From: a virus
Taxonomy: Duplodnaviria; Heunggongvirae; Uroviricota; Caudoviricetes
Virus record (IMG/VR): IMGVR_UViG_2802428878_000002
Strand: one strand, 5' to 3'
Length of the DNA stretch: 64,000 nt
The notes beneath the pieces are model-generated. The model saw only the letters and a list, made by a program, of their open reading frames with translations. It did not search any database and had not been told where the DNA came from. Below are positions 12,452 to 62,806 of this stretch, one piece after another. A program made the position numbers and the translations under genes. Numbering within the stretch: position 1 is the first letter of the stretch; every line of letters begins with the position of its first letter.

Positions 12452-12480
12452 CCACGTCCGCAGCGTTCGCCCCGCACGCG

Positions 12481-13908: not shown

Positions 13909-13967
13909 ATCACAGCCATTGGGTACCGCCTCACGGATGGCAACGACATCCCATAATCATTGCAGTC

Positions 13968-21264: not shown

Positions 21265-21404
21265 CGGGCAATCGTCAGCGCTAATCCGCGCCGCCTTTCC
21301 ACTCAAGAGCCGCACGCCGGCGCTCAGATCCGAGTTCCACCGCTGTATCGGCGTGTCGTCTCGGTCGCGGAGAGCGTAGGGCTGATCACTCCAATACTAC
21401 TGTC

Positions 21405-24660: not shown

Positions 24661-24677
24661 TACCCCACCTTTTCGAT

Positions 24678-24695
24678 TTCTCTATTTTAGAGAAT
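24678..24695. promoter_or_regulatory. Palindromic 18-bp motif TTCTCTATTTTAGAGAAT, copy 1 of 4, upstream of the 24660 gene
   Basis: Read directly. The half-sites TTCTCTA / TAGAGAA are perfectly inverted. Confidence 0.5.
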
Positions 24696-24973
24696 AGATG
24701 ATTGGGGTGACATGCCGTCCAGGGGCACGCGACACGCCGAGAGTCGTCAGTTCATCCGATTAGGTCCGATCGCAATTTGGAAGTACCTTCCCAACGGGGC
24801 CAGAACTGCTCCCGCGCCTGGACTCTCGACCAGCTCCGCTCCCCGGCGGCGGCTGACGAGAATCCGCAAGGGCCGAAGAACCTCGTGAAGGTCGCGTTCT
24901 GCGTTGCTCTCCCCTTTTCGTGGCGGGCGCGGGCCGGGGACGCACCGCTCGACGGAAAGGGAGGTCTCCTCTC

Positions 24974-28515: not shown

Positions 28516-28528
28516 ACGTCTCACTCTA

Positions 28529-28546
28529 TTCTCTATTTTAGAGAAT
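28529..28546. promoter_or_regulatory. Palindromic motif TTCTCTATTTTAGAGAAT, copy 2
   Basis: Read directly. Confidence 0.5.
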
Positions 28547-48496: not shown

Positions 48497-49651
48497 ATGT
48501 CTGCACCAGCAGCCGTTCCCGCACTCAGTGACATCACACACCCGCCCGCCGCCGCTGTCGCACCGCCTGTTGTCGCTCCGGTGGCCGCTCCCGTTGCGCC
48601 CGTTGCACCGCCGGCAGCTCCGGCCACACCAACGGTCAGCCCGGTTGCGCCCGTTGCGCCGGTCGTACCCTTGAACACCGCGGCGCCGATTGTTCCGGCT
48701 CCCACAGCCGTTCTAGATGCCCCGGTTACTTCGTCTGAGCCGGTCCCCGTACCTGCGCCAGCCGCTCCTGCCGTCACTCCAGTGACCGTGGCTGCCGTCG
48801 AGCCGGCACCCTCGACTTCCCCGATCGCCGGAATCGCTCCGGTCACACCGCCTCCGGTCGCGCCATCTGTCACCCCTCCGGTGGCCCCGATCTCTGCACC
48901 AGCTGCGGCTGCTCAACCGGCACAGACCGCAGAACCCGCGCCGGCGCCTGAACCGGTCTATGCCCAGGGCACGGTCGTTGGCGCCGTTGATGTGGCACCA
49001 GTGGTTGCACCGGTTGTCGCAGCACCGAGTGTCGAATCGGTAGCTGCGCAAGCTGTCTCGGTGCCGGTGTCGGACAGCGTGCGGGCATTCGCAGCCCGGC
49101 ACAACATCGACCTATCGACCGTGACAGGAACCGGCAGTCGCGGGCGTATCACCCGCAAGGATCTCGAAGCGATCGTCGCAGCAGCTGCGGCACTTAGCTC
49201 CGAGGCCCCTGTCGCAGAGCCCGAAGTCGCCGCAGCGCCGGTAGCCGAGCCTGTTGCGCCTCCGGTGGTTCCTGCGCCCTCCCCCGCCTCGGTGGCGCCG
49301 GTTATCGTTGAGCCCACCACCACACCGGTGGAACCGGCTCCCGCACCTGCTTTCTCGGCGCCGATCGTCGCCGCCCCGAGCGCCACAGAGGAGCCCGCAC
49401 CTTCGGCTCTTACACCGGCAGCACCCGTTGACTCATCCCCGTCCCAGGTGGTCAGTGGCGGACTCAATCTGCGCGTGCCGATCGACCTGAGTGCCGGGAA
49501 CAAATTCGCGTTCGATGCCGGAACCGACTTGGTAGCGCTTGCTCGCGATGTCCTGCCCGCTCTGAACGTGCTGTCGGCGTTCGTCGAGCTCACCGTCGAA
49601 GGTCCTGCACTTGTGGTCACCGTGGCCGCGACGACGGCGGTCAGCTTGTGA
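48497..49651 (+). CDS. Pro/Ala/Val-rich low-complexity protein containing a peripheral-subunit (E3)-binding-domain-like segment
   Basis: VSDSVRAFAARHNIDLSTVTGTGSRGRITRKDLEAIV (about 49067-49177) matches the PSBD pattern sPlaRklA..gidl..v.GtG..GRItk.Dv. Confidence 0.6.
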   Translation: MSAPAAVPALSDITHPPAAAVAPPVVAPVAAPVAPVAPPAAPATPTVSPVAPVAPVVPLNTAAPIVPAPTAVLDAPVTSSEPVPVPAPAAPAVTPVTVAAVEPAPSTSPIAGIAPVTPPPVAPSVTPPVAPISAPAAAAQPAQTAEPAPAPEPVYAQGTVVGAVDVAPVVAPVVAAPSVESVAAQAVSVPVSDSVRAFAARHNIDLSTVTGTGSRGRITRKDLEAIVAAAAALSSEAPVAEPEVAAAPVAEPVAPPVVPAPSPASVAPVIVEPTTTPVEPAPAPAFSAPIVAAPSATEEPAPSALTPAAPVDSSPSQVVSGGLNLRVPIDLSAGNKFAFDAGTDLVALARDVLPALNVLSAFVELTVEGPALVVTVAATTAVSL

Positions 49652-50445
49652 CCGCTGTACCTTCAGACATCCTCGACAGCCAGGCACTGGGTGCGCAAGC
49701 ACCCGGTGCGCAGCCGATCCTGTTGCCTCGCCCGGTATCTGGCCGCAGCGATGGCCTGATCCCTGTACGTGTTGCTCCCCTGGTCTCGCACGATTCCGAA
49801 GAGTCGGGCGCTGCTGCTGAGAAAGTCACCGAGACTGTCATGGACATGCAGCTGATCGTGGATTACACGAACGCGTTGGCCAAGCGAACAGCCGCCAATA
49901 TCCAGGCCGACAACATCACTGAACTCGCGCAAGCACACGAACACCCGCAGCAGGGTGCCGCGTGCCTGCGGTGCTCGATTCTTGGTTCCTCGCGCAACCT
50001 GACACTGGGAACCACGCTGCTGGAAATTCTCGCGCGCACCAATGCCGACGAAGAGTGGAACCACAGCCAGGAGTGCACGGACACCAAAATCATCTCGCGG
50101 CTGAAGCGATTGGTAGTCAGCGCTACATCCCTGAAAGACATCTACGGCCCCCACTGGGGTCCAGTGATGCTCACATGCCTGCGTATCGAGGCTGCTGATT
50201 TCGCACTGCTGCACCATCTCACGCAGAAATACCAACACAGCAAGGTGCTGACCGTGCACACGCGCGAAGCACTGGCGGCGTACCACCTCGCCATGGTGAC
50301 TTGCCCATTCACGAGCACTGTGCGCGGTACGGCCAATCCGATGCTTCGCAGCGCGGTAGCCGTGCGTCTGGCCACCGCAACCGCAATGGTCGCCGTCGGC
50401 AAGCCACCGGTCTGGCTTGATCACCTGCCTGCCCCGGTTCTGTGA
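49648..50445 (+). CDS. hypothetical protein (265 aa)
   Basis: Translationally coupled (ATGA) to the next gene. Confidence 0.5.
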   Translation: MTAVPSDILDSQALGAQAPGAQPILLPRPVSGRSDGLIPVRVAPLVSHDSEESGAAAEKVTETVMDMQLIVDYTNALAKRTAANIQADNITELAQAHEHPQQGAACLRCSILGSSRNLTLGTTLLEILARTNADEEWNHSQECTDTKIISRLKRLVVSATSLKDIYGPHWGPVMLTCLRIEAADFALLHHLTQKYQHSKVLTVHTREALAAYHLAMVTCPFTSTVRGTANPMLRSAVAVRLATATAMVAVGKPPVWLDHLPAPVL

Positions 50446-51212
50446 ACACTCACGCACAGCCGCTCGACACGGCGATACCGACCCCTGACGGATTCCGCCG
50501 GCTGGACGATCTCGTCCACGGCGACACGGTGTTTGGTTCCGATGGAACCCCGATACCGGTTCTTGCCGTCAACGACATCGGATCCGTTTCGATGGCGCGT
50601 CTGCATTTCGATGACGGCGCCAAGACCGACGTAGCCGCGGAAACTCTGTGGCAGGCTCGTGACGGCGCCACCGGCGCGATCGGCATCTATCGCACCGCTG
50701 ATATCTGCGCCAATCTGGTGCTGCCGGGAGGTGCACCGCGTTGGACGATCCCGACTGCGGCAGCCGTTGCGTTCCCGGAGGCCGCTGGTCTCCCGGTCGA
50801 CCCCCTAACCTTCGGGTCCGAACTGCGCAGCGGCGAGGCTACTGACGCAGGCCTTCTTTGGCGGTACCTCACCGCGGACGTCTCACAGCGGCGCGAAACG
50901 CTCGCCGGTGTACTGGGCACGCGGTCCAGCATCGGAGCGTCGGCTCCCTCCATGGCGCTGGCCGCCGCCGGCTCTCTGATCCGTTCACTGGGCGGACTGC
51001 CCACATGGGTTCGGCACGGAGCCGGATACAGCCTCGTGCCGTTGTGGGGGCGCGACGATGAACTGCGCCGCGAAATCGTTTCGTTCGAGCAGGTTCCCGA
51101 TCAGCCTTGCCGCGCAATCACGGTGGCCGCAGCTGACGGGCTGTACGTCACTGGCGGTGACTTCGTTCTCACGCTCGGCGCCGCGATCGCCGAACAGCGA
51201 GGCGCTGCATGA
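50442..51212 (+). CDS. Free-standing degenerate intein-like (Hint) protein with LAGLIDADG-like remnants
   Basis: N-terminus LDTAIPTPDGFRRLDDLVHGDTVFGSDG is an intein block A lacking Cys1. C-terminus DGLYVTGGDFVLT is an intein block F/G with VLT in place of VHN. Middle region has LAGVLGTRSSIG. Confidence 0.5.
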   Translation: MNTHAQPLDTAIPTPDGFRRLDDLVHGDTVFGSDGTPIPVLAVNDIGSVSMARLHFDDGAKTDVAAETLWQARDGATGAIGIYRTADICANLVLPGGAPRWTIPTAAAVAFPEAAGLPVDPLTFGSELRSGEATDAGLLWRYLTADVSQRRETLAGVLGTRSSIGASAPSMALAAAGSLIRSLGGLPTWVRHGAGYSLVPLWGRDDELRREIVSFEQVPDQPCRAITVAAADGLYVTGGDFVLTLGAAIAEQRGAA

Positions 51213-53182
51213 CAGTCACCGACTTGGCTCCCGCCGCAGATCAAGAGCAGATGGCTTTCCCTGTCGCAGCCCCTGCAACCAACGAGCCACGTGCACTGCG
51301 CGAGTTTCAGATCGAAGCCGCCGATGCGGTATGCGCTGCCTACAACCGTGGCGTCGTGGGACCGGCGGTCGTGCTGCCGACCGGGACGGGAAAAACGACC
51401 GTCATCGCAGAGCTGGCGCGCCGTGAGGTGACCAACAGCGGCCGGGTGCTGCTGATGGCACACCGCGACGAATTGATCAAGCAGATGGCCATTGCCGTCT
51501 CAGCGGTGAACCCGGCCGGCCCCGTCCCCTCGCTGATCGGAGGAGACAATCGCGATGACCCGACTGCTCAGATTGTCTCGGCCACAGTGCAATCACTACA
51601 GACTGAGACAGCCCTAGCCAGAATCGGGCACCGCGACCTCGTCATCGTCGACGAGGCCCACCACGCGCCCGCCCGGACCTACCGCAAGGTGCTCGACCAC
51701 TTCACTGCTCTGGGCGCGCGCCGCGCCGGATTCACCGCGACGATGATCCGTCACGCCCCGAGCAGGGACGAGCCCGCCTTGAGGACCATCTGGGAAGAAG
51801 TGGTTTTCGAGCGGGACATCAACTGGGCCATCGAAAACGGCTTCTTGATCGCGCCAGAAGGCGTGACCGTTGAACTCCCGGAACTTGATGTCTCGAAGCT
51901 GTCCTCCGGTAGTGGCGGAGACATCTCCGACGAGGTCGCTGAAGAGGCGATGATGCGAGAGACCACGCTAAACGCCACTGTCGAGGCGGTGTTGACGCGC
52001 ACCGAGGGCCGCTCATCCATCGTCTTTGGCGCTTCGTTGTTGCACTGCGAGCAACTAGCCAAGTCCCTTGTCGAACAGGGTGTTTCCGCCGAAGTGGTTG
52101 TCGGAGAGACCAAAACCCGCGTCCGTAACGGCATTTACAACCGATTCCGACACGGGAGCACCCAGGTGCTGGTGACGGTCGACGTGCTCACCGAGGGAGC
52201 AGACTTCCCTCGCTGCGAAGCGGTCGTGCTGGCCAGACCGACGCGCAGCCAGTCCAGGCTTGTCCAATGTGTAGGGCGCGCTCTGCGGCCACACACCTTC
52301 GAAGACGGAACCGTCAAAGACACCGCTCTCGTCGTGGACCTCGTGGGCGCCGGATCCCTCGGGCTGATCGTCAAGACCCGCCTGGACCCCGAACACCGCG
52401 AGAAGCCGGAGAGCGACGAAGACGGGTTCGGTTGCTTCTGCCAGCAGCCCTGCACAAGTGACGAGTGCGACTTCTCCTGCACCGGAATAGGTTGTGAATG
52501 CAACTGCACGTGTGCGAACGAGTCGTCTGAGTCAGGTCCAGCCAGCGACCCCGTGTCCAGTGTCCCCTGCACATGCACATGCACGCTGACCTTCGGACTG
52601 TGCCGTTGCGGTTGTGAATGCGACTTGCACCGGGTAGATCCGCTGTGGACTTTCGATCCGGTTACCGGCGACGTCCTAGCCGCCGGAAAACAGCGGCGAG
52701 GCGACTCCAGCTGGTCGCAGCGCACCTCCACGATCCGCTGGGTACACCACCCCCGCGGCCTCGTGCGCTCGGTGTACCGCGCCAACGGCCACAAAGGCGT
52801 ACTGATGCTCGCCGATATGCGTGGTGTCGCCGGGACCGTCGCGGGCCGTGATTGGGCCTTCGGATTCTTCGACAGCACGGTGCACCGCATGTTCTGGGTC
52901 GGCCTCGATGGGCAGTGGACCGAACCGGGTCCCCGGTGCTACCTGCAAGGGCTGAGCCTGGCAGAGGCAGACGCGCTGGCGCAGAATATCTTTCCCGATC
53001 ACATGCGTGATCTCCCCCGCGCAAAGTCCTCCGATGCGCAGATCGACTTCGCGTCGCAATTGGGAGTCCCCGACGCCGGCCAGCTCGACCGCCGTGACCT
53101 CGGTGACCTGATCGCACTCGCCCAAGCCGAGAAGTGGCTCCCGGCCTTCCAGCGCCCCGGCGCCGTTGAAACCGCAGCTTGA
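51209..53182 (+). CDS. SF2 DEAD/DEAH-box helicase with an inserted Cys-rich (about 24 Cys) metallothionein-like cluster and a C-terminal domain of unknown function
   Basis: Walker A LPTGTGKT, DEAH box VIVDEAHH, motifs III and VI (TAT; QCVGRALR). Cys cluster CFCQQPCTSDECDFSCTGIGCECNCTC...PCTCTCTLTFGLCRCGCEC at 52433-52621. Confidence 0.85.
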   Translation: MTVTDLAPAADQEQMAFPVAAPATNEPRALREFQIEAADAVCAAYNRGVVGPAVVLPTGTGKTTVIAELARREVTNSGRVLLMAHRDELIKQMAIAVSAVNPAGPVPSLIGGDNRDDPTAQIVSATVQSLQTETALARIGHRDLVIVDEAHHAPARTYRKVLDHFTALGARRAGFTATMIRHAPSRDEPALRTIWEEVVFERDINWAIENGFLIAPEGVTVELPELDVSKLSSGSGGDISDEVAEEAMMRETTLNATVEAVLTRTEGRSSIVFGASLLHCEQLAKSLVEQGVSAEVVVGETKTRVRNGIYNRFRHGSTQVLVTVDVLTEGADFPRCEAVVLARPTRSQSRLVQCVGRALRPHTFEDGTVKDTALVVDLVGAGSLGLIVKTRLDPEHREKPESDEDGFGCFCQQPCTSDECDFSCTGIGCECNCTCANESSESGPASDPVSSVPCTCTCTLTFGLCRCGCECDLHRVDPLWTFDPVTGDVLAAGKQRRGDSSWSQRTSTIRWVHHPRGLVRSVYRANGHKGVLMLADMRGVAGTVAGRDWAFGFFDSTVHRMFWVGLDGQWTEPGPRCYLQGLSLAEADALAQNIFPDHMRDLPRAKSSDAQIDFASQLGVPDAGQLDRRDLGDLIALAQAEKWLPAFQRPGAVETAA

Positions 53183-53214
53183 CAGACCGACCACGAAACG
53201 CAGGAGGAGGACCG

Positions 53215-54210
53215 ATGTCGATGACGCAGGAAGTGCGTGACGAGTTGAGTCGCGCCACATCAATACACCAGGGGTGCAGGCGTGTTCAGGTCGCAGCTAT
53301 CGTCCGACTCGCTGGTGAGCTTCGTGTCTCCCGTACCGGGCTGACGGTGCACATCGAGGTCGGCACCGGTGCCGTCGCGCGGTACCTGCGCCGGGAAATC
53401 GCAGCGCTGTATGGCCACAAAGCAGTAGTGATCGTGAACAGCGAAACCGGATTGCGCCGTGGTGCCCGTTACACGGTGCGCGTGAGCGAAGGTGGGCGTG
53501 ATCTCGCCCTACAGACTGGTCTCATCGACCTGCGCGGCCGGCCCGTCACCGGGCTACCCGCGATGGTGGTCGGCGGATCACCGGGCGAGGTCGCCGCAGC
53601 CTGGCGCGGCGCCTTCATGGTCGCTGGATCATTGATCGGACCGAGCCGATCCAGCGCGCTGGAGATCAGCTGCCCCAACCCCGAGGTGGCCTTCGCGCTG
53701 ACCAGCTGCGCGCGCCGGCTGGGTGTTCAGTCGATGGTGCGCACGGCTCGTGGCATCGACCGTGTCGTGATTCACGACCATGACAGCATCGGAACGCTCT
53801 TGACCCGAATCGGTGCAGACGAGTCGCGCATCTCCTGGGAGCGGCGAATCGCTCAGCGCGCAATGCAGTCGACCGCAATCCGGCTGGTCAACCTCGATGA
53901 CGCCAACGCGCGTAGATCAGCACGAGCAGCGGCAGCCACGGCGGCCAAGGTGAAGCAGGCACTAGCGATTTTGGGGGCAGAAGCACCCGAGCACCTGGTG
54001 CACACCGGACAGCTTCGCCTGGATCACCGCGAGGCATCTCTGGAAGAGCTTGGGCAGCTCGCCCAGCCGCCCATCACCAAAGACGCTGTCGCAGGCCGGT
54101 TGCGGCGGTTGCTCATCATGGCCGACCGCCGCGCCGCCGGAGAAGAGCAGGACGAGTTCGATTCAGAGCGCCCCGACGGTGGGGCCGTCCGACTCCTGGC
54201 AGGTGCGTAA
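53215..54210 (+). CDS. whiA: WhiA-like DNA-binding protein (LAGLIDADG-derived domains plus C-terminal HTH): paralog 1
   Basis: Aligns by eye along its length with mycobacterial WhiA (VRDELSR...GLPAMVVGGSPGEVAAAWRGAFMVAGSL...RSSALEISCP...NLDDANARRSARAA...PITKDAVAGRLRRLLIMADR). RBS AGGAGGAGG before the ATG at 53215. Confidence 0.85.
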   Translation: MSMTQEVRDELSRATSIHQGCRRVQVAAIVRLAGELRVSRTGLTVHIEVGTGAVARYLRREIAALYGHKAVVIVNSETGLRRGARYTVRVSEGGRDLALQTGLIDLRGRPVTGLPAMVVGGSPGEVAAAWRGAFMVAGSLIGPSRSSALEISCPNPEVAFALTSCARRLGVQSMVRTARGIDRVVIHDHDSIGTLLTRIGADESRISWERRIAQRAMQSTAIRLVNLDDANARRSARAAAATAAKVKQALAILGAEAPEHLVHTGQLRLDHREASLEELGQLAQPPITKDAVAGRLRRLLIMADRRAAGEEQDEFDSERPDGGAVRLLAGA

Positions 54211-54213
54211 TCC

Positions 54214-54456
54214 ATGGATACCACCGATGTGTGCACCTGCCCTGATGGCCGCAATCACGTGGACTGCCAAGAACATCGGTGTAGCGACATTCGCCAAGCC
54301 CTGGACACTCCCATCTGGATTGAGCTCGCCTGGGAGATGGACCTCAACTGGGCGGGCAATGCCGGTGAGTTGTTCTGGCAGCACGGCCGGATCGAGCTGT
54401 GGACGTTCGACCAGCCCCCAACCGAGAAAGCACAGGAGACTAAGCATGTTGAGTGA
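54214..54456 (+). CDS. small Cys/His-containing hypothetical protein (80 aa)
   Basis: ORF directly after whiA-like 1. Confidence 0.4.
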   Translation: MDTTDVCTCPDGRNHVDCQEHRCSDIRQALDTPIWIELAWEMDLNWAGNAGELFWQHGRIELWTFDQPPTEKAQETKHVE

Positions 54457-54715
54457 CTGGGAACCCCACAACATTCCACCTTTCAAGTTGCCTGATATGA
54501 GCCCGCGGCATGCGCCAGAGACCTTGTTTCGGCCGCACACGGTGAACGTTCAGCGCGATCAGGACGCAGAAGTCGTGATCGTCAGCATTTCCGGCAATCG
54601 ACTGTTCAACGGAACACCGCATTTCGGCTGGCTCGATACGTGGGAATGGGATCGCGATCGTGACCCTCGGGAGCCATGGATCGACGACCTTATCGCCGAG
54701 GTGGTGAATCGATGA
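54446..54715 (+). CDS. small hypothetical protein (89 aa)
   Basis: ATG overlaps the previous stop. Confidence 0.4.
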   Translation: MLSDWEPHNIPPFKLPDMSPRHAPETLFRPHTVNVQRDQDAEVVIVSISGNRLFNGTPHFGWLDTWEWDRDRDPREPWIDDLIAEVVNR

Positions 54716-55050
54716 GTCCACGAAGATGGCCCATTGCGGCCGCACTGGCAGTCGTGCTCACCGCCTGCGGGAATGGACCAGCTGAAGGAAAGGTCGTAGA
54801 CACCGAGTACAGCCCCGCGTGGACCCAGTACGTGCCGGGCACCCCGGGATCAACGACATGCAGTGGGAGCCCGCCACGCTGCAACACATATCCCGGCACG
54901 CCGCCACAGTGGATCCCCCACTCGGAATCTTGGCGCCTGAGATTGGACAACGGGAAAGAGATCGGCTGGCGCGAGGTCAGTCGGGAGGAATACGAGGCGT
55001 GCACGCGCGATCAGCACTACCCCGAATGCGCGAAGGGCGAGACTCGATGA
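54712..55050 (+). CDS. putative lipoprotein (lipobox LTAC)
   Basis: Signal peptide MSPRRWPIAAALAVVLTAC|GNG. ATGA overlap with the upstream gene. Confidence 0.5.
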   Translation: MSPRRWPIAAALAVVLTACGNGPAEGKVVDTEYSPAWTQYVPGTPGSTTCSGSPPRCNTYPGTPPQWIPHSESWRLRLDNGKEIGWREVSREEYEACTRDQHYPECAKGETR

Positions 55051-55361
55051 GCTGCCGATACGCGACGAAGCGCCTGTTTCCGACAAGCGAACTCGCCCAG
55101 GCAGGCGCACAGGATATCCGCGCGACAGTGGAATCCGCGGGCCGCACTTTCCAGACGCTCCACCCATACAAGTGCCCCGACGACGCGGGGCACTGGCACC
55201 TTTCGCACTACCCGCAGGGCTTTGCCACCTGCTCATGGTGCCGACGTCGCGCGGAGGCCTGGTACGGCGGGAAGTTCTGGGTGATGGCCGCACACACCAC
55301 CGACGGCGGGCCTTGCCTGGGCGTTGGCGGCATGGGCAGCGACGGAGGTGACTCCCTGTGA
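55047..55361 (+). CDS. hypothetical protein with the Cys/His domain CPDxxHWHLS..PQG.A.C.WCRRR.EAWYGG..WVMAAH: paralog A
   Basis: Shares the N-terminal CRY... motif and the Cys/His block with the 60650-61609 protein. Confidence 0.5.
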   Translation: MSCRYATKRLFPTSELAQAGAQDIRATVESAGRTFQTLHPYKCPDDAGHWHLSHYPQGFATCSWCRRRAEAWYGGKFWVMAAHTTDGGPCLGVGGMGSDGGDSL

Positions 55362-55445
55362 GCGATGCGCCGATGCCCCACCAGACCCTGTGCACGGGTC
55401 GCTTTCCTGCCTCGGGTCGTCAGCAGCCTGAGAGGAGCAAATGAT

Positions 55446-55703
55446 ATGGGGCGAACCCCGTACCTGGCCACGCTGACCGAGAATGGCACCCAGATCGAGC
55501 ATTCCGACGCCTATGCACACAACTCGGCTGTCCGTAAGTCTGAAGCTCTGGTACGCAAACACGCCCGCACCCGTGGGATCACATTGACCGGTGACAAGCC
55601 GACTCGTGACGGCACCGTGTACACCCGCCGCTGGCACGCATCAACCTGCGAAGTGATAGTCACAGTACGGCCGAAGTCGCCTGTACCCGAGGAAACCCCA
55701 TGA
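55446..55703 (+). CDS. small hypothetical protein (86 aa)
   Basis: ATG after GGAGCA. Confidence 0.4.
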   Translation: MGRTPYLATLTENGTQIEHSDAYAHNSAVRKSEALVRKHARTRGITLTGDKPTRDGTVYTRRWHASTCEVIVTVRPKSPVPEETP

Positions 55704-56017
55704 GCGCCGCCGAGGTGCCCACGAGCATCGCCCAGCAGTACCCAGCGCGCACCGACACCAACGGAAACACCTGGTACCGGCCAGTGCGTCCCAAGGGATT
55801 TGACTTCGATCAGTGGGGCTGGACGTCCGACCCCGCGCAGGCTGATCCGAGCTACGCAGCCGATGCGGCGTCCTGCACCTTGACGGCGCCGGGCACTTCG
55901 TTGACGCCGGAGGACCGCGCTGCTGTCTTGGAGTTTCGGCAGTACCTCGCCGGTCTGCCCCTCCCATACGTGCCGGTTCTCGTCGACGTTCCCAGCCACA
56001 CCACTGATCAGGGATAG
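55700..56017 (+). CDS. hypothetical protein (105 aa)
   Basis: Coupled ORF. Confidence 0.4.
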   Translation: MSAAEVPTSIAQQYPARTDTNGNTWYRPVRPKGFDFDQWGWTSDPAQADPSYAADAASCTLTAPGTSLTPEDRAAVLEFRQYLAGLPLPYVPVLVDVPSHTTDQG

Positions 56018-56026
56018 GAGTATCCG

Positions 56027-56980
56027 GTGAATCCACTGACGCAACAGGTCAAATACGAACTGAATCGGGTACTTCCGTCTCCCTGCGACAAGCCTTCGAC
56101 CAGACGTGCGCAGGTCTCAGCGATGCTGCGCTTCGGCGGCGGGTTTTTCAGTGAGGGCCGCCGCTGCTGGATCGACGTCGAGCTCGATACGCTCGAAGCC
56201 GCGGTGTTCTTGCGCGACGAGATCACCAAGCTCTTCGACGCGGCGCCGCGCGCGTTCGAGCTCTCGGCGGGAACCTTCAAGGTGCGCCAGATACATCGCG
56301 CCCACAACCTAGCGGTGCAGGTGGGCCTGCTCAGCCCGTCGGGTCGACCGGTGGTAGGGATGGCGCCGACGGTGGTCGCCGGCACACGCGCTGACGCGGC
56401 AGCCGCACTTCGCGGTGCGTTCTTGGCACGCGGACAGATCATCACCCACGAGCTCCGCCGACCTCGCCTCGAGGTTGTGTGCCCGACTGCCCCAGCGGCG
56501 ATGGCACTCGGTGGGTTCGCCCGCCGCCACGGAGTACAGAGTCAGATGCGCGAATACACCCGCGACGGAGTATCTGTCGACGTATTCGAGATTCGCAAGA
56601 CCCCGGAGATGGGGAGATTCCTCATAGCCGTGGGAGCACCTGAAGCTGCGCACACCCTCATGAGCACGCACCGCGAATCGATGCGCGTCGAGAACCTCGA
56701 GGCTGCCAACAGCTCCAGGTTCATCCAGGCGGCACACGACCAAGCCGAATCAGTGGGGCGTGCGCTCCGAATCCTCGGCGATGACGTGCCACCACAGCTG
56801 GCAGAGGCGGCGCGACTACGCCTGGAGAACCCGGAAGCCCGAATGAGCGAGCTTGCAGCCAACGCCGATCCACCGATCACCAAGGACGCCTACGCCGGCC
56901 GAATCTGGCGCCTGCTGCAGCGCGCAGAAGAGCGCGCGAGGGACTCGGCAGCAGATTCCGACAATGCCGCCGCTCGATAG
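56027..56980 (+). CDS. WhiA-like protein: divergent paralog 2
   Basis: Same block order as WhiA (VKYELNRV...; AAALRGAFLARGQI; ENLEAANSSRFIQAA; PPITKDAYAGRIWRLLQRAEER). Confidence 0.7.
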   Translation: MNPLTQQVKYELNRVLPSPCDKPSTRRAQVSAMLRFGGGFFSEGRRCWIDVELDTLEAAVFLRDEITKLFDAAPRAFELSAGTFKVRQIHRAHNLAVQVGLLSPSGRPVVGMAPTVVAGTRADAAAALRGAFLARGQIITHELRRPRLEVVCPTAPAAMALGGFARRHGVQSQMREYTRDGVSVDVFEIRKTPEMGRFLIAVGAPEAAHTLMSTHRESMRVENLEAANSSRFIQAAHDQAESVGRALRILGDDVPPQLAEAARLRLENPEARMSELAANADPPITKDAYAGRIWRLLQRAEERARDSAADSDNAAAR

Positions 56981-57002
56981 ACCGCAACCATCACTAGTGA
57001 TA

Positions 57003-57020
57003 TTCTCTATTTTAGAGAAT
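57003..57020. promoter_or_regulatory. Palindromic motif TTCTCTATTTTAGAGAAT, copy 4, abutting the start of the 57021 gene
   Basis: Read directly. Confidence 0.5.
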
Positions 57021-57878
57021 ATGGAAGGGCTCGTTATGCCAGCATTCACCCCTCGACTCGGGCCGTTGACACCGGCAGCTCAGGCTGTCGCTGACAGCGT
57101 CTCCGCAAGATTCGCGGGAAGCCCGACCCGGTTCTACCCGTCGATCGAGCGTGACCCCCAAGAACCATACTCGGCGGTCATCGCACAGAGCTCAGATCTG
57201 ACCTGGCGCAAAGGTCGTGGAAAGTCCCGTAAGGGGTTCGGTCTCTGGATTCGCCCCAGGACCACACCCGCGGTGAAAGCCGTGCCTACCCGCATCCGCG
57301 AGAACATCGCTGCCTGCGCCGCACTTGGACTGAGCTACTGGAGCGAAGCGCCGGATCATGGGGCGTTGTGGGCGTTGGACACCGAGACCGTCATTCACAT
57401 GGTGATGATCACTCGTCATTCGAATACCGCGAAGCACATCTGCGGCACCGACAAGGCGCTGCGCTACGGGGACACTCGCAGGCGTTGCACCGGTACTGGC
57501 GAAAACGCCGAGTACGCGGCTACACCTGACGACGAAGGATTGTGGGCGCTCGCCGATTTTCGCCCCACCCCAGGTGCCTTCGTTGGCACGGTCGACACAC
57601 CCGCACAACGGGACCCACGGAAGGCGGTGAGACTCAAGATCGACCAACAGTTGCTGCTGTTCGTTGCTGCTCAGATCCGCGAAAACAACAGCGCCATCAC
57701 CACCCTTGATGCGGAGATACTTGCCGCTCTGTACTCGACCCGTCAGTATTCGAGCTCCTTAACACTCAGCGTCTCGGTCGCACGCGACCTCATGCCACTC
57801 ATCGAAGCTGAGATCAAGCGCCGAGCCGAGGCCGCCAATGAATGCGCCACCAACATGCGAGAGGCCGCCATAGCATGA
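57021..57878 (+). CDS. hypothetical protein (start at 57021 or 57036)
   Basis: ATG immediately after the motif; a second ATG at 57036 has RBS GGAAGGG. Confidence 0.55.
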   Translation: MEGLVMPAFTPRLGPLTPAAQAVADSVSARFAGSPTRFYPSIERDPQEPYSAVIAQSSDLTWRKGRGKSRKGFGLWIRPRTTPAVKAVPTRIRENIAACAALGLSYWSEAPDHGALWALDTETVIHMVMITRHSNTAKHICGTDKALRYGDTRRRCTGTGENAEYAATPDDEGLWALADFRPTPGAFVGTVDTPAQRDPRKAVRLKIDQQLLLFVAAQIRENNSAITTLDAEILAALYSTRQYSSSLTLSVSVARDLMPLIEAEIKRRAEAANECATNMREAAIA

Positions 57879-58507
57879 GCTACTATCCCGATCGAATGAA
57901 ACTGCGCCCCTTAGAGAATTGGCCCGGAACGTTTCCAAGCCTGCACATCCGTTCCCCTTTCTCGGCGCCACTGCGGACGACACTCGAAGAGCTCGACCGT
58001 GAGTTATCGTTCCTCGGATCGGACGGCTCGAACGCCCCGTCCGTACTCGAGGTCGCCCTCCGAGAGCGCGATTTCCGGCTCGACGGCCTGCCACGAGCCG
58101 ATGCGCGGGTGCAGCACCCTGGCGTGATCTTGCATATCGAATCCCGCGTCGGCCCGCTGTCGTACCCCGCGGCGAAATTCAATACGTGGCAGGACAATTT
58201 GCGTGCCATCACGCTAGGACTCAACGGATTGCGTCGTCTCGACCGATACGGGATCACCCCGGGAAGCGAGCAGTACACCGGGTGGAAACAGCTTCCGTCA
58301 GCGGGACAGTCCGGCGTGGTTGCGACCGCTGATGACGCAGAGCAGATCATCCGCCTGGCAGCTGGTGATCAGGATTCAGCGCTCGACAAGGCCTATCGCG
58401 CAGCACGGGGCAACTCGCATCCCGACCGCAACGACGGAGACCGCGCGAGATGGGACCTCGTCGAAGCAGCAGGCGATGTTCTTCGCCGCGCTGGCCGTCT
58501 GACGTAA
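57875..58507 (+). CDS. J-domain (DnaJ-like HPD motif) protein: N-terminal domain of unknown function plus C-terminal J-domain
   Basis: C-terminus KAYRAARGNSHPDRNDGD...WDLVEAAGDVL has the J-domain helix II-III HPD signature. Confidence 0.55.
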   Translation: MSYYPDRMKLRPLENWPGTFPSLHIRSPFSAPLRTTLEELDRELSFLGSDGSNAPSVLEVALRERDFRLDGLPRADARVQHPGVILHIESRVGPLSYPAAKFNTWQDNLRAITLGLNGLRRLDRYGITPGSEQYTGWKQLPSAGQSGVVATADDAEQIIRLAAGDQDSALDKAYRAARGNSHPDRNDGDRARWDLVEAAGDVLRRAGRLT

Positions 58508-58618
58508 ACGACTGCGACGACCTGTACCTATGTCCCACTACCCGCCCGATACCTGCTGATACTTACCCGCCGTCGACCCCTCGTTATCGCCAATCACATC
58601 GAAAGGACTCGAGCAGCC

Positions 58619-58960
58619 TTGAGCGACAAAGAGGCACTACCCGCTGGTACTGAAGTCGTCATCTACGGACAACCACTTTGGCTTGGCGTGATCGTGAGTG
58701 GTCCGGACGAGAACCTACTAGGCAACGTGTCTTATCGGATCCGTTGTGAGAACGGAGAAATCGTCAAACGGGCACCGTCGATTGTCGTGCGACGCACCGA
58801 CTTCGCCACCAGCTGGCATGTCTGGAAAGACGACCAGGTCATCGCCGGCGGCCCAGAAATCTCACGCGAACGAATGGACCAGTATGCCGCTGAGCACGGT
58901 GGAGAGGTCCTCTACGGCTGGCCAGAAGGTCATCCGGAAGCGCAGGCACCGGCGCAGTGA
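58619..58960 (+). CDS. hypothetical protein (113 aa)
   Basis: ORF with ATG start. Confidence 0.45.
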   Translation: MSDKEALPAGTEVVIYGQPLWLGVIVSGPDENLLGNVSYRIRCENGEIVKRAPSIVVRRTDFATSWHVWKDDQVIAGGPEISRERMDQYAAEHGGEVLYGWPEGHPEAQAPAQ

Positions 58961-58982
58961 ACTGAAAGGACTATGAACCACC

Positions 58983-59813
58983 GTGAGTGACAAGACCATT
59001 GCGCGCATCGCCGCGCTGCTGAACAAAGCGGACAACACCGACAACGAGCACGAGGCCGACGCGTTCCTCAAGGCCGCACAGCGCATCGCCACGCTCGAAT
59101 CGATCGACCTGGCCAAAGCACGGGCACACACTCGGTCCAAGGAATCGACGACGCCGGAGCAGCGGGAGATTGTCATAGGAGAGCGCCGCCAGCGAGGCTT
59201 GACCACACTCATCGAGCTGTTCTTGGAGATCGCCGCGGCCAACGATGTGCGCGTAGCCGTGGCACACAACAACACGCGGGTCTACGCCCACGGGTACCGC
59301 GATGACATCGACGTGGTGCAGGCCCTGTACGTTCGCCTGCTCCCACAGATGGCCGCGGCTAGCCGCGCGTTCCTGGCGCGCGGGGACTACCAGCGCGAGG
59401 AAGTGCCATATTCCGTTCGGGTTCGCGATCGTGGCACCGGCGCCCAGGTCTGGGAAACGCGCTACAAGCCGATGGCCACCATCACCGCGCGGCTGGAATT
59501 CCAAGCGGGTTTTGCACGGCGCATCGGCCGGCGGCTCTGGGAAGCCCGACGCGACGCCGAGGCTGAGTCTCGCGCGACCGATCCCATCGACCCTGGACAA
59601 GGTGCATCCACAGAGCTGGTTCTGGCAGACAAGCGCAAGGCAGTGGCGGACTACTACAAGAAGTACTCGAACACCGGTCGGCGAACGCACCGTGGATACC
59701 GACCCAACACCGTGAGCTTCGTCAGTCGCGACGCCGGCGACCGTGCTGGACAGCGCGCGAAGCTGGGTGCTGATACCGAGATCGCCCACGCCAAGGCCGC
59801 GTTGAGCGCCTGA
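58983..59813 (+). CDS. DUF2786-domain protein
   Basis: N-terminal IARIAALLNKADNTDNEHEADAFLKAAQRI is the DUF2786 signature, common in actinophages and plasmids. Confidence 0.65.
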   Translation: MSDKTIARIAALLNKADNTDNEHEADAFLKAAQRIATLESIDLAKARAHTRSKESTTPEQREIVIGERRQRGLTTLIELFLEIAAANDVRVAVAHNNTRVYAHGYRDDIDVVQALYVRLLPQMAAASRAFLARGDYQREEVPYSVRVRDRGTGAQVWETRYKPMATITARLEFQAGFARRIGRRLWEARRDAEAESRATDPIDPGQGASTELVLADKRKAVADYYKKYSNTGRRTHRGYRPNTVSFVSRDAGDRAGQRAKLGADTEIAHAKAALSA

Positions 59814-59814
59814 C

Positions 59815-60345
59815 ATGTCGACACGCGACTTTCAACGCCAGGCCGTGTACGACGCCGAAGTCATCGTGCGCCGACTGTTCGATAATGCCCGCACAGGGCA
59901 GAACCCCGTTGTCACGCTCGGGGGCGTCACCCTCACATTGCCGCCCGAAGCGTTGTTCGGTGACCTACAGAGCGCCGAGACGCATGCCAACCGAGTTCTG
60001 GCCCTGCCGCAGGTCCAAGAACGGTTCGGAGCCGCCAGAGCGGTGCGGGTGCGCCGCCGGAAAGGTCTGCATTTCGCGCACTACGAGCCACGAAGAGCTG
60101 TGATCGCGATACCCGATGAACATCATTGGGCGCTGCGTGAGCTCGTGCTGCTTCATGAGCTGGCGCATCATCTCGACCCGTCCCGGAAAGATGTGAGTCA
60201 CCGCATTCACGGGCCAGTGTTCGTCGACACCTACTTCACCCTCTTGGAACTGGTGATGGCACCCGAAGCCGCGCTAGCGGCACGGATCATCTTCCGCGAC
60301 AACGACATTGTCCACTCAACCCCTCGGAATTCGGAGGCGTCGTGA
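59815..60345 (+). CDS. putative zinc metallopeptidase-like protein (HExxH: LHELAHHLD)
   Basis: Single HELAHH motif in a 176-aa protein. Confidence 0.5.
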   Translation: MSTRDFQRQAVYDAEVIVRRLFDNARTGQNPVVTLGGVTLTLPPEALFGDLQSAETHANRVLALPQVQERFGAARAVRVRRRKGLHFAHYEPRRAVIAIPDEHHWALRELVLLHELAHHLDPSRKDVSHRIHGPVFVDTYFTLLELVMAPEAALAARIIFRDNDIVHSTPRNSEAS

Positions 60346-60653
60346 AGTATCCCGCAGATTTCGTGAGCGCCGATCTCGGCTGGTGCCGTATCCATCGTGG
60401 TCACGGTCTGGAAGTGAATGAACTACTGGCGGACCTGACAGAGTGCGGTGGGAGCGCGCGGCGCGACGGTGAGGAGACCATCGTCGAGCAAGTCCACCTG
60501 TACTACCAACCGCGCATCAAATGGTGCGGTCGCCACGGCGATCCGTGTGACAACGAAGGCGAATGGCACGGTCACTGGTTCGCGGCTCGTCCGAGCACCG
60601 ACACAGCGTTCACCCTGGTCTACTGGGGCAGACCAAAGGAGGCAGCCGCGTGA
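60342..60653 (+). CDS. small Cys/His-rich hypothetical protein
   Basis: Coupled ORF. Confidence 0.4.
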   Translation: MKYPADFVSADLGWCRIHRGHGLEVNELLADLTECGGSARRDGEETIVEQVHLYYQPRIKWCGRHGDPCDNEGEWHGHWFAARPSTDTAFTLVYWGRPKEAAA

Positions 60654-61609
60654 CATGCCGTTACAGCGCCGAGCCCGAATTCCCAACACGGAAGGCCGCA
60701 GACGCCGGCGCAGAGGCCCGCAAGCGCGAGCTGGAAGCGGAGTTTCAGGGTCGCATTCGGCAGCCGTGGTATCCCTTTCCCTGCCCAGACGGTAACCACT
60801 GGCACTTGGCCCTCTCTCCGCAAGGCCCTGCGATCTGCCCATGGTGCCGGCTTGTGAGGACTGCGTGGTACGGCGGCCTGGACCACGAGGCGTGGGTCAT
60901 GGCGGATCACCGCGGAGTTGACGGGCGGCTCTGCCCAGCTGTAACGCTCCCAGCGCTGCGCATGGTCCCTTTCACGGCCGCCCGTCCTGTCTGGATTCTC
61001 GGTTTTGAGGACGTGTTGAGCCGGCATCGCTCAGGCGCTCCGGGGGCCTCCTGTGAGATCGACTTGGCGACGCAGGGTGTAACTCGGTATCTGGAGCCTT
61101 GGAGTCAGCGTTGGTCACCGGAGCTCTGCAGCTTAATCTCCAAAGCGGTGAGCGTTGGAATCGATGTGCGCTGGCTGGTTCTGTCGCACCCCGGTGTCGC
61201 GGTCCTTCGAGCCTTTACCGACGCCTTGGCAGGTGACCTGCCAGACATCCCGATCCTCACTGAGCTCGATATGCCACGCGAGTATCGACTTCCCCGTCAC
61301 GGGTTCACCGGTACGGGCATTGAGCCGGGCTGGGAATCTGACGCTGTGATGGCGTTGGTTCCGCAAGCCTCTCCCCTGCTCTGGACTCCAAGCTTTCAAT
61401 GCGCCTGCGATTCGGAATTTGTGTGCGGCAGTGACCGCGTGGACCGCACCACGAAAAGCGTAGTGCGCCGGCGCGAAGGATCAACCACGGTGATCACTCC
61501 GAAATCCATCCGCGGCCGGATAACGTTCATGACCGATCACTGCATGAAGACGATCGCTAAATGGGTGCGCTGGAACGACCAGGAAGAAGGGGCAAGTGGG
61601 AGCTGTTGA
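60650..61609 (+). CDS. hypothetical protein, paralog B of the CPDxxHWHL...WCR..AWYGG domain, with an additional C-terminal region
   Basis: GTG start overlaps the upstream stop. FPCPDGNHWHLALSPQGPAICPWCRLVRTAWYGG...WVMADH. Confidence 0.5.
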   Translation: MTCRYSAEPEFPTRKAADAGAEARKRELEAEFQGRIRQPWYPFPCPDGNHWHLALSPQGPAICPWCRLVRTAWYGGLDHEAWVMADHRGVDGRLCPAVTLPALRMVPFTAARPVWILGFEDVLSRHRSGAPGASCEIDLATQGVTRYLEPWSQRWSPELCSLISKAVSVGIDVRWLVLSHPGVAVLRAFTDALAGDLPDIPILTELDMPREYRLPRHGFTGTGIEPGWESDAVMALVPQASPLLWTPSFQCACDSEFVCGSDRVDRTTKSVVRRREGSTTVITPKSIRGRITFMTDHCMKTIAKWVRWNDQEEGASGSC

Positions 61610-61883
61610 TCGTGCTGACGAAGGTCCTCCCAGTGAACTCGATGTCGTCAAACTACGACGCGAGCTCCGCGCCAAAGATGAACGTGATGAAGCCCTGGCA
61701 TACGCCGATTGTCGCGATGTGACTCTGCCCGCCGGGAGCATCGGAACGGTGCTCGTGATTACCGAGTTGCCCGGTAAACCTACCGGATACCTAGTCGAGT
61801 TCTCTGACGATGAAGGCGCAGCCATCGCGATGCCGTGGCTGACTGCCGACGACTTCGAAGTCGTCGAGCCACACCGTAAGTAG
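61596..61883 (+). CDS. small hypothetical protein (95 aa)
   Basis: ORF. Confidence 0.4.
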   Translation: MGAVDRADEGPPSELDVVKLRRELRAKDERDEALAYADCRDVTLPAGSIGTVLVITELPGKPTGYLVEFSDDEGAAIAMPWLTADDFEVVEPHRK

Positions 61884-61888
61884 CGGAC

Positions 61889-62806
61889 CTACATGCTGGG
61901 TAGCCCGGGCCAGCCAGGAATCGCTTTCTCAGCCTTCGGCTTGGTAACTGTCCACTGCGCTTTAGCTTTTCGAGCATCGGGACCATCGGGCATCGAGTCG
62001 CTGCACTGCTGGCGGCGGCGGCCAAACTCCGAAAAACTCTCCGAGTGATCGCTGCCGGCCAGATCCGGGTGAGATTCCCAGCCGCTGTCTGGATCGGCAC
62101 CGCGGATCCGCCATGGCGTGAACACGTTTTGTGCCGGCTGCGAAGCATCACCTTCCTGATCGCGGGCCGTCACTGCCCCTTCGGCGTCGCTGATCTCGAC
62201 GTGCCAGAGCCGAATGTCTTTGAGAGGCTCACTGGGTTGTCCTTCCCAGCCGGGCAGGGTCGTCACCGGGCTGTATCTATCGCCGTCATCACGAAACATC
62301 TTGTACAACCCATCGCACACGTAGGCCTGCCATCCTCCGGGAACTTTCTTCAACGACTGGATGTGGAGTAACTCATTGCCGTAGAAGCGTTTTGAGGTGT
62401 ATCGCTGTCGATCACTTCGATAGATATCGCCGTAGGATTCGTCCAATGTCGGCCGTGTGCTGGTCAGCATGTACGGCGGGACCTCGCGGGGCTGTATGAA
62501 ATTTTCGTAGGTGAGCTCTTGGTTCTCCGGAACTGCCGCCTCAAATCCCGGGTATGCCGCACCCATGTTCGACTCCATCAGCACAACGCGCCAGGACTCC
62601 ACATACGCACGTAACGGCACCGCGGGCCCGGACACAAGGTCTATCCCCGGCTCGGCTGTCCACCGGAATTGGAAATCGGCCAGATTCGCCCGCCAGTCCA
62701 ACGGCGTATCGGGTAGCTGTCCAGGCGTTCGCCACAGCGGCACGCTCCCCACCAGAGCGGCGGCCAGCAGCGCAGCTGCCGCACCTCCAAACACCGTCCT
62801 GATCAT
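61889..62806 (-). CDS. secreted hypothetical protein (N-terminal signal peptide)
   Basis: MIRTVFGGAAAALLAAALVGS signal-like N-terminus. Confidence 0.55.
   Translation of the reverse strand: MIRTVFGGAAAALLAAALVGSVPLWRTPGQLPDTPLDWRANLADFQFRWTAEPGIDLVSGPAVPLRAYVESWRVVLMESNMGAAYPGFEAAVPENQELTYENFIQPREVPPYMLTSTRPTLDESYGDIYRSDRQRYTSKRFYGNELLHIQSLKKVPGGWQAYVCDGLYKMFRDDGDRYSPVTTLPGWEGQPSEPLKDIRLWHVEISDAEGAVTARDQEGDASQPAQNVFTPWRIRGADPDSGWESHPDLAGSDHSESFSEFGRRRQQCSDSMPDGPDARKAKAQWTVTKPKAEKAIPGWPGLPSM

Follow-up and report, generated by a model that had tools for sequence, protein, structure and literature searches.

The virus record IMGVR_UViG_2802428878_000002 of IMG/VR, a stretch of 64,000 nucleotides here referred to as the window, carries two diverged genes of the WhiA family on an integrative element of Mycobacteroides abscessus. 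Mycobacteria depend on WhiA and WhiB2 as essential cell-cycle regulators, and as a rule their core genome has whiA in one copy. In M. abscessus, a pathogen that is hard to treat, a common accessory element adds two further WhiA copies, named WhiA-1 and WhiA-2, together with matching DNA sites. Our preferred explanation, to which we assign a probability of roughly 0.55, is that the proteins are regulators dedicated to the element and act on promoters with a WhiA box, probably together with the WhiB2 of the host.

Both genes are already on record, auto-annotated as whiA in hundreds of genomes, and whiA is also found on large mycobacterial plasmids. In the literature on WhiA paralogs, on mobile WhiA and on the M. 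abscessus mobilome no paper discussing these genes was found; one paper reported M. kansasii to be without a whiA paralog. New are a WhiA module of two genes that is conserved and falls into two separate clades, the integrative context of this module at tRNA-Val and, above all, the identical WhiA boxes on replication genes of the element.

Two WhiA paralogs on an integrative element

WhiA-1 and WhiA-2 are intact members of the WhiA family, judged by the NCBIfam equivalog TIGR00647 and the Pfam families PF10298, PF14527 and PF02650. The more conservative paralog, WhiA-1, scored 70.7 bits for WhiA_N, 68.0 bits for LAGLIDADG_WhiA and 67.8 bits for HTH_WhiA. The divergent WhiA-2 reached 26.3, 30.2 and 57.3 bits, respectively, all above the cut-offs of 23.4, 23.2 and 27 bits. 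With TIGR00647 (cut-off 44.1 bits) 268 bits were obtained for WhiA-1 and 136 bits for WhiA-2. The top match among solved structures was for both proteins, over the full length, the WhiA of Streptomyces venezuelae in the promoter complex of RNA polymerase (RNAP), sigmaA, WhiB and WhiA (8DY7/8DY9; E 2e-98 for WhiA-1 and 8e-48 for WhiA-2). WhiA-1 shared 58-60% identity with chromosomal WhiA proteins of Mycobacteriales with a length of 327 amino acids (aa) and 36% with WhiA-2 (E 1e-43). This upholds an earlier description made from the DNA letters (here named the sequence-only reading), which had likened WhiA-1 block by block to mycobacterial WhiA and had seen the same block order, at low identity, in WhiA-2. 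A strong ribosome-binding site, GGAGGAGGA, is located 5 nt 5' of the ATG of WhiA-1.

The window is M. abscessus DNA. The exact WhiA-1 protein was present in 391 contigs of this species under the GenBank name 'DNA-binding protein WhiA', the exact WhiA-2 protein in 20 contigs and a 322-aa variant of WhiA-2 in 185 contigs. Since the carrier contigs include M. abscessus chromosomes of 4.6-5.3 Mb (e.g. CP012044.1 and CP065033.1), the two genes are integrated into the chromosome and not located on a free plasmid.

By sequence the pair belongs to the WhiA family, and its locus is non-canonical. A survey that covered M. abscessus ATCC 19977 found one WhiA orthologue in a uvrC-rapZ-yvcK-whiA-gap cluster in all actinobacteria surveyed except Acidimicrobium, with the canonical synteny uvrC - rapZ - yvcK - whiA - gap/pgk/tpi (PMC4255298). 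It agrees with the earlier statement that WhiA is normally a single chromosomal copy. In M. abscessus, whiA is among the essential genes (PMC10470612). Next to WhiA-1 and WhiA-2 we found a helicase, small open reading frames (ORFs) and a DUF7457 gene, and the canonical synteny was absent; rapZ, yvcK and uvrC are missing, as the sequence-only reading had said.

That the window is simply the ordinary chromosomal whiA locus, for which the family match alone would speak, is refuted, and the earlier dismissal of this possibility was right. The neighbours are a helicase and small ORFs and not uvrC, rapZ, yvcK and gap, the attachment (att) junction at tRNA-Val marks an insertion, and both copies fall into clades apart from canonical WhiA. 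Furthermore, a WhiA-1 search of a one-genome-per-species collection (185,579 species; best 80 genome loci taken) gave no M. abscessus genome among the best 80 loci. The sole close relative of WhiA-1 among these loci was found in Mycobacterium sp. D16Q14.

The element that carries the pair starts at about position 20692 and is integrated at tRNA-Val(CAC) in tandem with other islands. Its left border is marked by an att repeat (Table 1). At three other loci (L019-L021) the same att sequence runs on into an intact tRNA-Val(cac), and the att core is found at the same place in L109-L111, with a different island to its left in L109. In total, 43.6 kb of the element lie in the window, and it extends beyond the right end. 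The element varies between M. abscessus strains. The att repeat, this strain variation and the synteny with a Tsukamurella replicon together bear out the claim that two diverged WhiA paralogs reside on a mobile element.

The syntenic record, NZ_LR134455.1, shares SPFH, an FtsK-type ATPase, SLT, two large hypothetical proteins, PolA on the minus strand, E3_binding, two further hypothetical proteins, the helicase and WhiA. Of genes that might belong to a secretion or conjugation machinery, the window has only FtsK/SpoIIIE-type ATPases, an SLT domain protein and a fusion of an EccC-like with an EccA-like part scoring below the cut-offs. We call the whole an integrative element related to large actinobacterial replicons, which may be an integrative and conjugative element, an integrated plasmid or an unusual prophage. 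The label 'plasmid' by itself was rejected as proof of mobility, and gene content and circularity of the record were used instead. Multi-'plasmid' assemblies of NCTC strains are unreliable.

A prophage reading, prompted by the capsid gene at 15341-16459, was rejected as well, since this gene belongs to a separate island. In a PHROGs scan of 20 element proteins no capsid, terminase, portal or tail gene was detected, and PHROGs contained no family for either WhiA protein. Megablast of the segments 25001-50000 and 51000-58000 against the INPHARED phages gave no match, and IMG/VR scans with both WhiA proteins gave no relative. By tblastn of WhiA-1 against phages, low-identity matches to Firmicutes-type whiA on phage-labelled contigs, none of them from an actinophage, and one match of 51% on an unannotated faecal contig were obtained.

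Functional residues were read from the alignment and from conservation counts, in the numbering of S. venezuelae WhiA. In that protein function is lost with R266E, L274A and K287E and lowered with R293E and R295E; it is also abolished when R174, R177, R181 and R185 are changed to Glu and in the K21E/Q98A/Q115A mutant, which concerns the contact with the beta'-dock (PMC10243135). WhiA-1 has kept all five residues of the first group. WhiA-2 has kept R266, K287 and R293 and carries L274M and R295W, the latter position being R or K in the WhiA-2 orthologues of D16Q14 and Logan contig L028. Within the arginine group R174 is kept in both proteins, R177 and R181 are kept in WhiA-1 and lost throughout the WhiA-2 clade, and R185 is kept in WhiA-2 and replaced in WhiA-1 (R185H). 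At the beta'-dock residues both paralogs have K21R and a retained Q98, and Q115 is changed to Q115M in WhiA-1 and Q115T in WhiA-2.

As a baseline for conservation we used the positions invariant in 11 canonical actinobacterial WhiAs. WhiA-1 retains 49/70 of these in the N-terminal domain, 18/28 in the long helix and 34/38 in the helix-turn-helix (HTH) domain at the C-terminus. The corresponding numbers for WhiA-2 are 41/70, 7/28 and 28/38, and its long helix is shortened. According to the alignment, the recognition helix of WhiA-2 is retained and its DNA clamp is different. Since WhiA-1 retains the recognition residues, it should read the canonical WhiA site.

Two other divergent lineages share the order helicase, WhiA-1, WhiA-2, palindrome, DUF7457. 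Mycobacterium sp. D16Q14 carries the helicase, WhiA-1 (73% identity), two small ORFs, WhiA-2 (48%), DUF7457 and a gene of 211 aa. L028 has an overlap of 4 nt between the two whiA genes, and its WhiA-1 and WhiA-2 are 67% and 42% identical, respectively. Relatives of WhiA-2 are few, with 36 proteins at E <= 1e-10, two of which share contigs with WhiA-1 relatives.

In a neighbour-joining tree (200 bootstraps) the WhiA-1 clade was supported at 100% and the WhiA-2 clade at 99%; both were placed outside the canonical Mycobacteriales clade (99%). WhiA-2 and the single WhiA of the Tsukamurella element grouped together at 98%. The two genes do not stem from a recent tandem duplication, because each is nearer to canonical WhiA than to the other paralog: towards the WhiA of Mycolicibacterium hodleri the identity is 56% for WhiA-1 and 38% for WhiA-2, and between the two it is 35%.

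The ratio of nonsynonymous to synonymous substitution rates (dN/dS) was 0.15-0.22 for WhiA-1, 0.28-0.43 for WhiA-2 and 0.11 for the helicase, with the long comparisons saturated at synonymous sites. Comparisons of WhiA-2 within the species (dS 0.075-0.44) gave 0.28-0.37. On these ratios both copies evolve under purifying selection. Among M. abscessus strains WhiA-1 is nearly invariant, and WhiA-2 and the intervening small ORFs vary strongly. Between strains with nearly identical WhiA-1 genes the dS of WhiA-2 reached 0.44, which suggests recombination inside the WhiA module.

The strong divergence and strain variability of WhiA-2 might be taken as signs that the copies are decaying, functionless passengers from the host chromosome. 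This is very improbable and contradicted by the results, since both genes are intact in hundreds of genomes and the pair was kept in three lineages with dS > 1.2 at a dN/dS well below 1. The clades are also old and lie outside the canonical Mycobacteriales clade.

WhiA boxes and the proposed role of the pair

The consensus of M. tuberculosis WhiA, GACACGCC, was derived from chromatin immunoprecipitation sequencing and in vitro DNA-affinity sequencing, and WhiA and WhiB2 activate dnaE1 and dnaB in this species (PMC13473873). We found 8 sites with this consensus in the 43.6 kb of the element, five of which were located in the intergenic fraction of 10.4% (binomial P 5e-4). All five intergenic sites are one identical 11-mer, CGACACGCCGA, here named the WhiA box. 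With up to one mismatch allowed, the window contained 12 matches to the box, compared to 4.0 expected, and 0 of 100 shuffles reached 12. Neither the 953 kb surrounding 79 canonical whiA loci nor the 17 kb of M. abscessus chromosomal flank contained the 11-mer; the background of the 8-mer in the DNA of these loci and the flank was 1.4 per 43.6 kb. Plain GACAC was not enriched in intergenic regions (12/106, P 0.42) and GACACGCC across the whole window was marginal (10 sites versus 5.2 expected), so that the signal emerges only with position and the 11-mer taken into account.

All five boxes are antisense to the gene behind them and lie within 36-71 nt 5' of start codons; in 4/5 the spacing to the predicted start codon is 46-47 nt. 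One of the genes, the DEDD exonuclease, gave 34.2 bits with RNase_T (PF00929) and a match to phrog_192. The box upstream of PolA is present in every M. abscessus variant and perfect in Mycobacterium sp. D16Q14. In front of the Tsukamurella polymerase a box of the PolA type with one mismatch was found in the same orientation, 49 nt upstream. The PolA box is thus conserved despite the helicase being the sole part that still aligns at the nucleotide level. The five identical boxes represent short, directly testable targets.

According to our proposal WhiA-1 would bind the 11-bp boxes CGACACGCCGA, which contain GACACGCC, and would activate the box promoters together with WhiB2, sigma-A and RNAP of the host. 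The boxes would place PolA, the DEDD exonuclease, the RNase H-like gene, the excisionase-type HTH gene and a fifth unit under the control of WhiA-1. The element would thereby have a supply of its own of the factor by which dnaE1 and dnaB are switched on in the host. We infer the occupancy of the boxes by WhiA-1, the positions of the transcription starts and activation as the effect from the sequence. The idea that the element supplies dedicated regulators, already put forward in the sequence-only reading, gains support from the five boxes before element genes.

A search of the six frames of the window for the WhiB-type motif C-X(18-40)-C-X2-C-X5-C gave no hit, and no WhiB-like (Wbl) gene was found in the window. 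Since none of the ORFs of the window has this cysteine motif, a WhiB partner would have to be the host WhiB2. Host WhiA can probably also act on the boxes of the element because these match the host consensus, and such an action would tie the replication of the element to the host cell cycle. WhiA-2 would be the older, element-type copy, common to Tsukamurella, which kept the lysine of the recognition helix and lost backbone contacts in the N-terminal domain and the long helix. From these features it most likely serves as a modulator whose DNA binding is altered or weaker, or else competes for the boxes or for WhiB2.

The main rival explanation, itself rather unlikely, is that the paralogs are mainly directed at the host: at GACACGCC promoters they would mimic the essential host WhiA or compete with it, or else they would titrate WhiB2. 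Host division and replication reprogrammed in this way (e.g. delayed septation) would favour replication or transfer of the element, which is compatible with the dedicated role preferred here. Rybniker et al. 2010 reportedly described that a WhiB-like protein of mycobacteriophage TM4 inhibits the host WhiB2. The host-type recognition residues of WhiA-1 make cross-talk with host WhiA sites hard to avoid, and WhiA-2 appears decoy-like, being without several DNA-clamp residues and yet with much of the N-terminal domain kept. The host WhiA regulon, moreover, covers sepF, dnaB, dnaE1 and ribosomal genes (PMC13473873). However, a purely host-directed role leaves the five perfect and oriented boxes before replication genes of the element unexplained.

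The position of the pair raises a further explanation. The WhiA genes follow directly on the helicase as the last genes of the replication operon, and they are neighbours of a non-coding gap of 975 bp between PolA and the operon, in which we infer a candidate replication origin. The gap contains a 119-nt imperfect inverted repeat (47160-47278 and 47434-47552, 74% complementary) and an AT-rich core at about 47290-47410. Only host WhiA might read the boxes, and the element proteins might serve in origin recognition or helicase loading at this gap, or in partition, with the homing-endonuclease-like fold and the HTH used as a DNA clamp. We regard such a non-transcriptional role as improbable. The PolA box aside, the gap has no array of GACAC-type repeats or of iterons that match a WhiA site, and the C-terminal HTH domain of WhiA-1 is strongly retained at its canonical-invariant positions.

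Several observations weigh against dedicated WhiA regulators of a mobile element. Q115, one of the three beta'-dock residues that are jointly essential in S. venezuelae, is gone from both paralogs. The box nearest to the WhiA operon has one mismatch and is oriented opposite to the five perfect boxes, and the distances between boxes and genes rest on predicted start codons. The GACACGCC sites of Tsukamurella are also mostly intergenic, but their orientation is mixed. The 43 kb of the element seen gave no capsid, terminase or relaxase gene. Neither the best 120 of 4417 protein matches nor the best 80 genome loci included the canonical whiA of M. abscessus. Finally, by sequence the boxes may be read by host WhiA, WhiA-1, WhiA-2 or another protein.

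More tentatively, the element would belong to a family of large actinobacterial mobile elements with a private WhiA circuit. In such a circuit the activator WhiA-1 and its partner or antagonist WhiA-2 would borrow WhiB2, sigma-A and RNAP of the host, fire the box promoters and perturb the WhiA/WhiB2 regulon of the host in the clinical M. abscessus isolates, hundreds in number, that carry the element; the circuit would be the WhiA counterpart of WhiB proteins encoded by phages. Provided that the proteins of the element do act on the boxes, the pair would be a natural system for the evolution of WhiA specificity and of the WhiB partnership, and it might contribute to how strains differ in division, replication control and drug tolerance. 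This would make it the second case, after the phage Wbl proteins, of mobile DNA tapping this pathway.

A second motif was found, the AT-rich palindrome TATTCTCTATTTTAGAGAAT, with four copies in the window, each placed just 5' of a gene's ribosome-binding site and start codon. One of these starts, the ATG at 28515, is backed by a full-length match to phrog_4095 from residue 1. At the centre of the palindrome the two strands read TATTTT and TAAAAT, both of which resemble -10 hexamers. The 17-bp core of the copy after WhiA-2 is 100% conserved in the M. abscessus variants, D16Q14 and L028 despite dS > 1.2. The palindrome was missing from the 79 canonical whiA loci and from the Tsukamurella loci inspected.

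The sequence-only reading had named the WhiA proteins as candidate binders of this palindrome, an idea that found no support. WhiA recognises an asymmetric GACAC site via one HTH (PMC10243135). We did not assign the palindrome to WhiA, since a perfect palindrome at the -10 position suggests a dimeric repressor; it is probably a promoter/operator for such a protein. Notwithstanding this assignment, the physical linkage of the palindrome with the 3' end of WhiA-2 is constant. The AT-rich palindromes would form a second, independent layer of control.

Relation to known WhiA proteins and phage systems

With canonical WhiA (S. venezuelae 8DY7/8DY9 and M. tuberculosis Rv1423) the element proteins share the two LAGLIDADG-like halves, the long helix and the C-terminal HTH. 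The GACAC(GCC) motif is likewise found before genes including a DNA polymerase, as it is for host WhiA/WhiB2 with dnaE1 and dnaB. In contrast to canonical WhiA, the pair consists of two copies, is located on an integrated mobile element and belongs to a helicase operon instead of the uvrC-rapZ-yvcK-whiA-gap cluster.

Wbl proteins of phages and plasmids (e.g. the WhiB of TM4) are comparable in that a mobile element carries one half of the host WhiA/WhiB pair. The present element differs in carrying the WhiA half along with matching cis sites, and the window contains no Wbl gene. Wbl proteins in actinobacteriophages have been mentioned before (PMC13013590).

The plasmid-borne whiA genes of M. 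avium (pP3-3a, NZ_CP085281.1), M. intracellulare (NZ_CP012886.2) and Mycobacterium sp. JS623 (NC_019958.1) encode proteins with 40-49% identity to WhiA-1. At the one locus inspected, on pP3-3a, whiA is present as a single copy and in a different gene context with a kinase, FHA and a peptidase. The plasmid proteins were placed outside the WhiA-1 clade and grouped weakly with WhiA-2 (54% bootstrap). Closer in structure is 'plasmid 13' of Tsukamurella tyrosinosolvens NCTC13231 (NZ_LR134455.1), which has the same backbone order and a WhiA that groups with WhiA-2. It differs as a free circular replicon of 264 kb with eccB, EccC-like ATPases, DUF87, ParB, cysS and mihF, carries one WhiA only and lacks the AT-rich palindrome in the loci inspected.

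The stoperators of Cluster A and MabJ mycobacteriophages (PMC9934374) differ from the WhiA boxes in their sequence and in their binder, a small phage repressor. Furthermore, stoperators block transcription, whereas the WhiA boxes are expected to activate it.

Replication operon, right-hand genes and left-hand island

The coordinates of all features are given in Table 1. The genes of the WhiA operon overlap or are 3-50 nt apart, with the exception of one gap of about 84 nt (55362-55445), according to gene calls and syntenic loci. A scan of 46900-62000 for consensus promoters and terminators gave sites not above chance. The helicase shares 32-34% identity over 95% of its length with the helicases of Rosebush-like mycobacteriophages. 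For PolA the start codon is probably the GTG at 46958; gene callers give a product of 927 aa. The helicase and PolA confirm the replication genes which had been described next to the pair. The DUF2786 gene, also predicted nearby, is present at 58983-59813. The J-domain gene named along with it could not be confirmed, as the 210-aa protein of the downstream unit matched DnaJ with 18 bits only, below the cut-off of 27.8.

Table 1. Positions of genes, sites and repeats in the window
Feature	Position	Strand	Remarks
Prim-Pol/D5 primase-helicase	1452-3929	-	
Tn7/Mu-like transposon	5431-15156		TniA 6271-8349, TniB 8337-9371, TniQ-like 9373-10269
Capsid-like protein	15341-16459		phrog_3990, E 1.7e-94; 41% identical to the capsid of phage Predator
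Amidase	17597-18778	-	
att repeat	20645-20691		46 bp, partial 3' end of tRNA-Val(CAC); element begins at ~20692
WhiA box	20910-20920	-	47 nt 5' of HTH_17 gene 20968-21264 (+), PF12728, at the left end of the element
WhiA box	21348-21358	-	46 nt 5' of RNase H-like gene 21405-22397 (+)
Palindrome	24676-24695		directly 5' of ribosome-binding site and ATG of the 24660 (-) operon
WhiA box	24730-24740	+	69 nt 5' of small-gene operon starting at 24660 (-); palindrome in between
Palindrome	28527-28546		11 nt 5' of ATG 28515 of gene 27802-28515 (-)
Palindrome, two changes	32490-32509		55 nt 5' of the start of the Band7/SPFH gene at 32434 (-)
One-mismatch box CGGCACGCCGA	32536-32546	-	intergenic region of the divergent Band7 and FtsK-AAA genes
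WhiA box	36024-36034	+	47 nt 5' of DEDD exonuclease gene 35278-35976 (-)
PolA	44175-46970	-	family-A DNA polymerase with 3'-5' exonuclease domain; divergent from WhiA operon
Non-coding gap	46971-47945		975 bp, between PolA and WhiA operon
WhiA box CGACACGCCGA	47005-47015	+	46 nt 5' of the PolA GTG; 34 nt from the TTG at 46970
One-mismatch box CGACACGCAGA	47823-47833	+	112 nt 5' of the first gene of the WhiA operon
WhiA operon	47946-56980	+	166-aa ORF, E3_binding-domain protein, two hypotheticals, superfamily-2 helicase, WhiA-1, six small ORFs, WhiA-2
Helicase	51209-53182	+	ResIII/DEAD superfamily-2; ends 32 nt 5' of WhiA-1; phrog_16 DNA helicase, E 8.6e-81
WhiA-1	53215-54210	+	331 aa; conservative paralog; agrees exactly with the ORF listing
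Six small ORFs	54214-56017	+	between the whiA genes; no Pfam matches on record
WhiA-2	56027-56980	+	317 aa; divergent paralog; last gene of the replication operon; agrees exactly with the ORF listing
Palindrome	57001-57020		20 nt past the WhiA-2 stop; directly 5' of ribosome-binding site and start (57036) of DUF7457
Downstream unit	57036-59813	+	DUF7457 protein, 210-aa protein, 113-aa ORF, DUF2786/DUF7168 protein

Gene turnover has a hot spot in the segment that separates the two whiA genes, which holds 0 to 6 different small ORFs (L003-L008, L026-L028). The ORF sets differ among L003-L008, an extra HTH_23 gene is located between the whiA genes in the variant L027, and the segment is missing in L028. 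The second gene of the WhiA operon (48497-49651) encodes an E3_binding (peripheral subunit-binding) domain with Pro/Ala-rich repeats on either side (direct-repeat families D3, D7, D12 and D18). It is kept in the Tsukamurella and D16Q14 relatives, and the domain is odd for a replication operon.

A stretch of 53 nt was found twice at 75% identity, at 55191-55243 in the gene 55047-55361 and at 60797-60849 in the gene 60650-61609, the latter of which matches phrog_10414. It encodes the Cys/His motif HWHLSHYPQGxxxCxWC and is probably a small zinc-binding domain present in two copies. The fusion protein of 688 aa at 32712-34778 combines an N-terminal ATPase of the EccC/FtsK type with a C-terminal AAA domain of the EccA/CbbX type, both below the cut-offs of the type VII secretion equivalogs.

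In the 10 kb beyond the right end of the window, genes for YAcAr, NUDIX, NAMPT, phosphoribosyltransferase, Macro and GmrSD were found. On the same element in L015-L018 (locus positions ~1-6100) a cluster resembling salvage of nicotinamide adenine dinucleotide (NAD) comprises NUDIX, NAMPT/NAPRTase, a RyR-domain protein, a phosphoribosyltransferase, Macro and GmrSD_C. Large phages have similar NAD-salvage sets, which act against defence systems that deplete NAD.

The left 20.7 kb of the window are a different island of lower GC content with Prim-Pol/D5, the capsid-like protein, the amidase and HTH_17. The island (1-20644 in the window) has about 12.5 kb and roughly 55% GC, and a tyrosine integrase is located just left of the window (L020, L023). 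Its integration site is tRNA-Val(CAC); it is present in several chromosomal contexts and adjoins an intact tRNA-Val(CAC) in other strains. Its genes suggest a phage satellite of M. abscessus that encodes a capsid; its exact Prim-Pol protein was not on record. The island is interrupted by a TniABQ transposon, the cargo of which consists of a DUF347 membrane protein and a pair of response regulator and histidine kinase. This transposon is 100% identical to a segment of the prophage prophiGD05-1 (MW584169.1). It moved recently between mobile elements, since it is identical in prophiGD05-1 and missing from the same island elsewhere.

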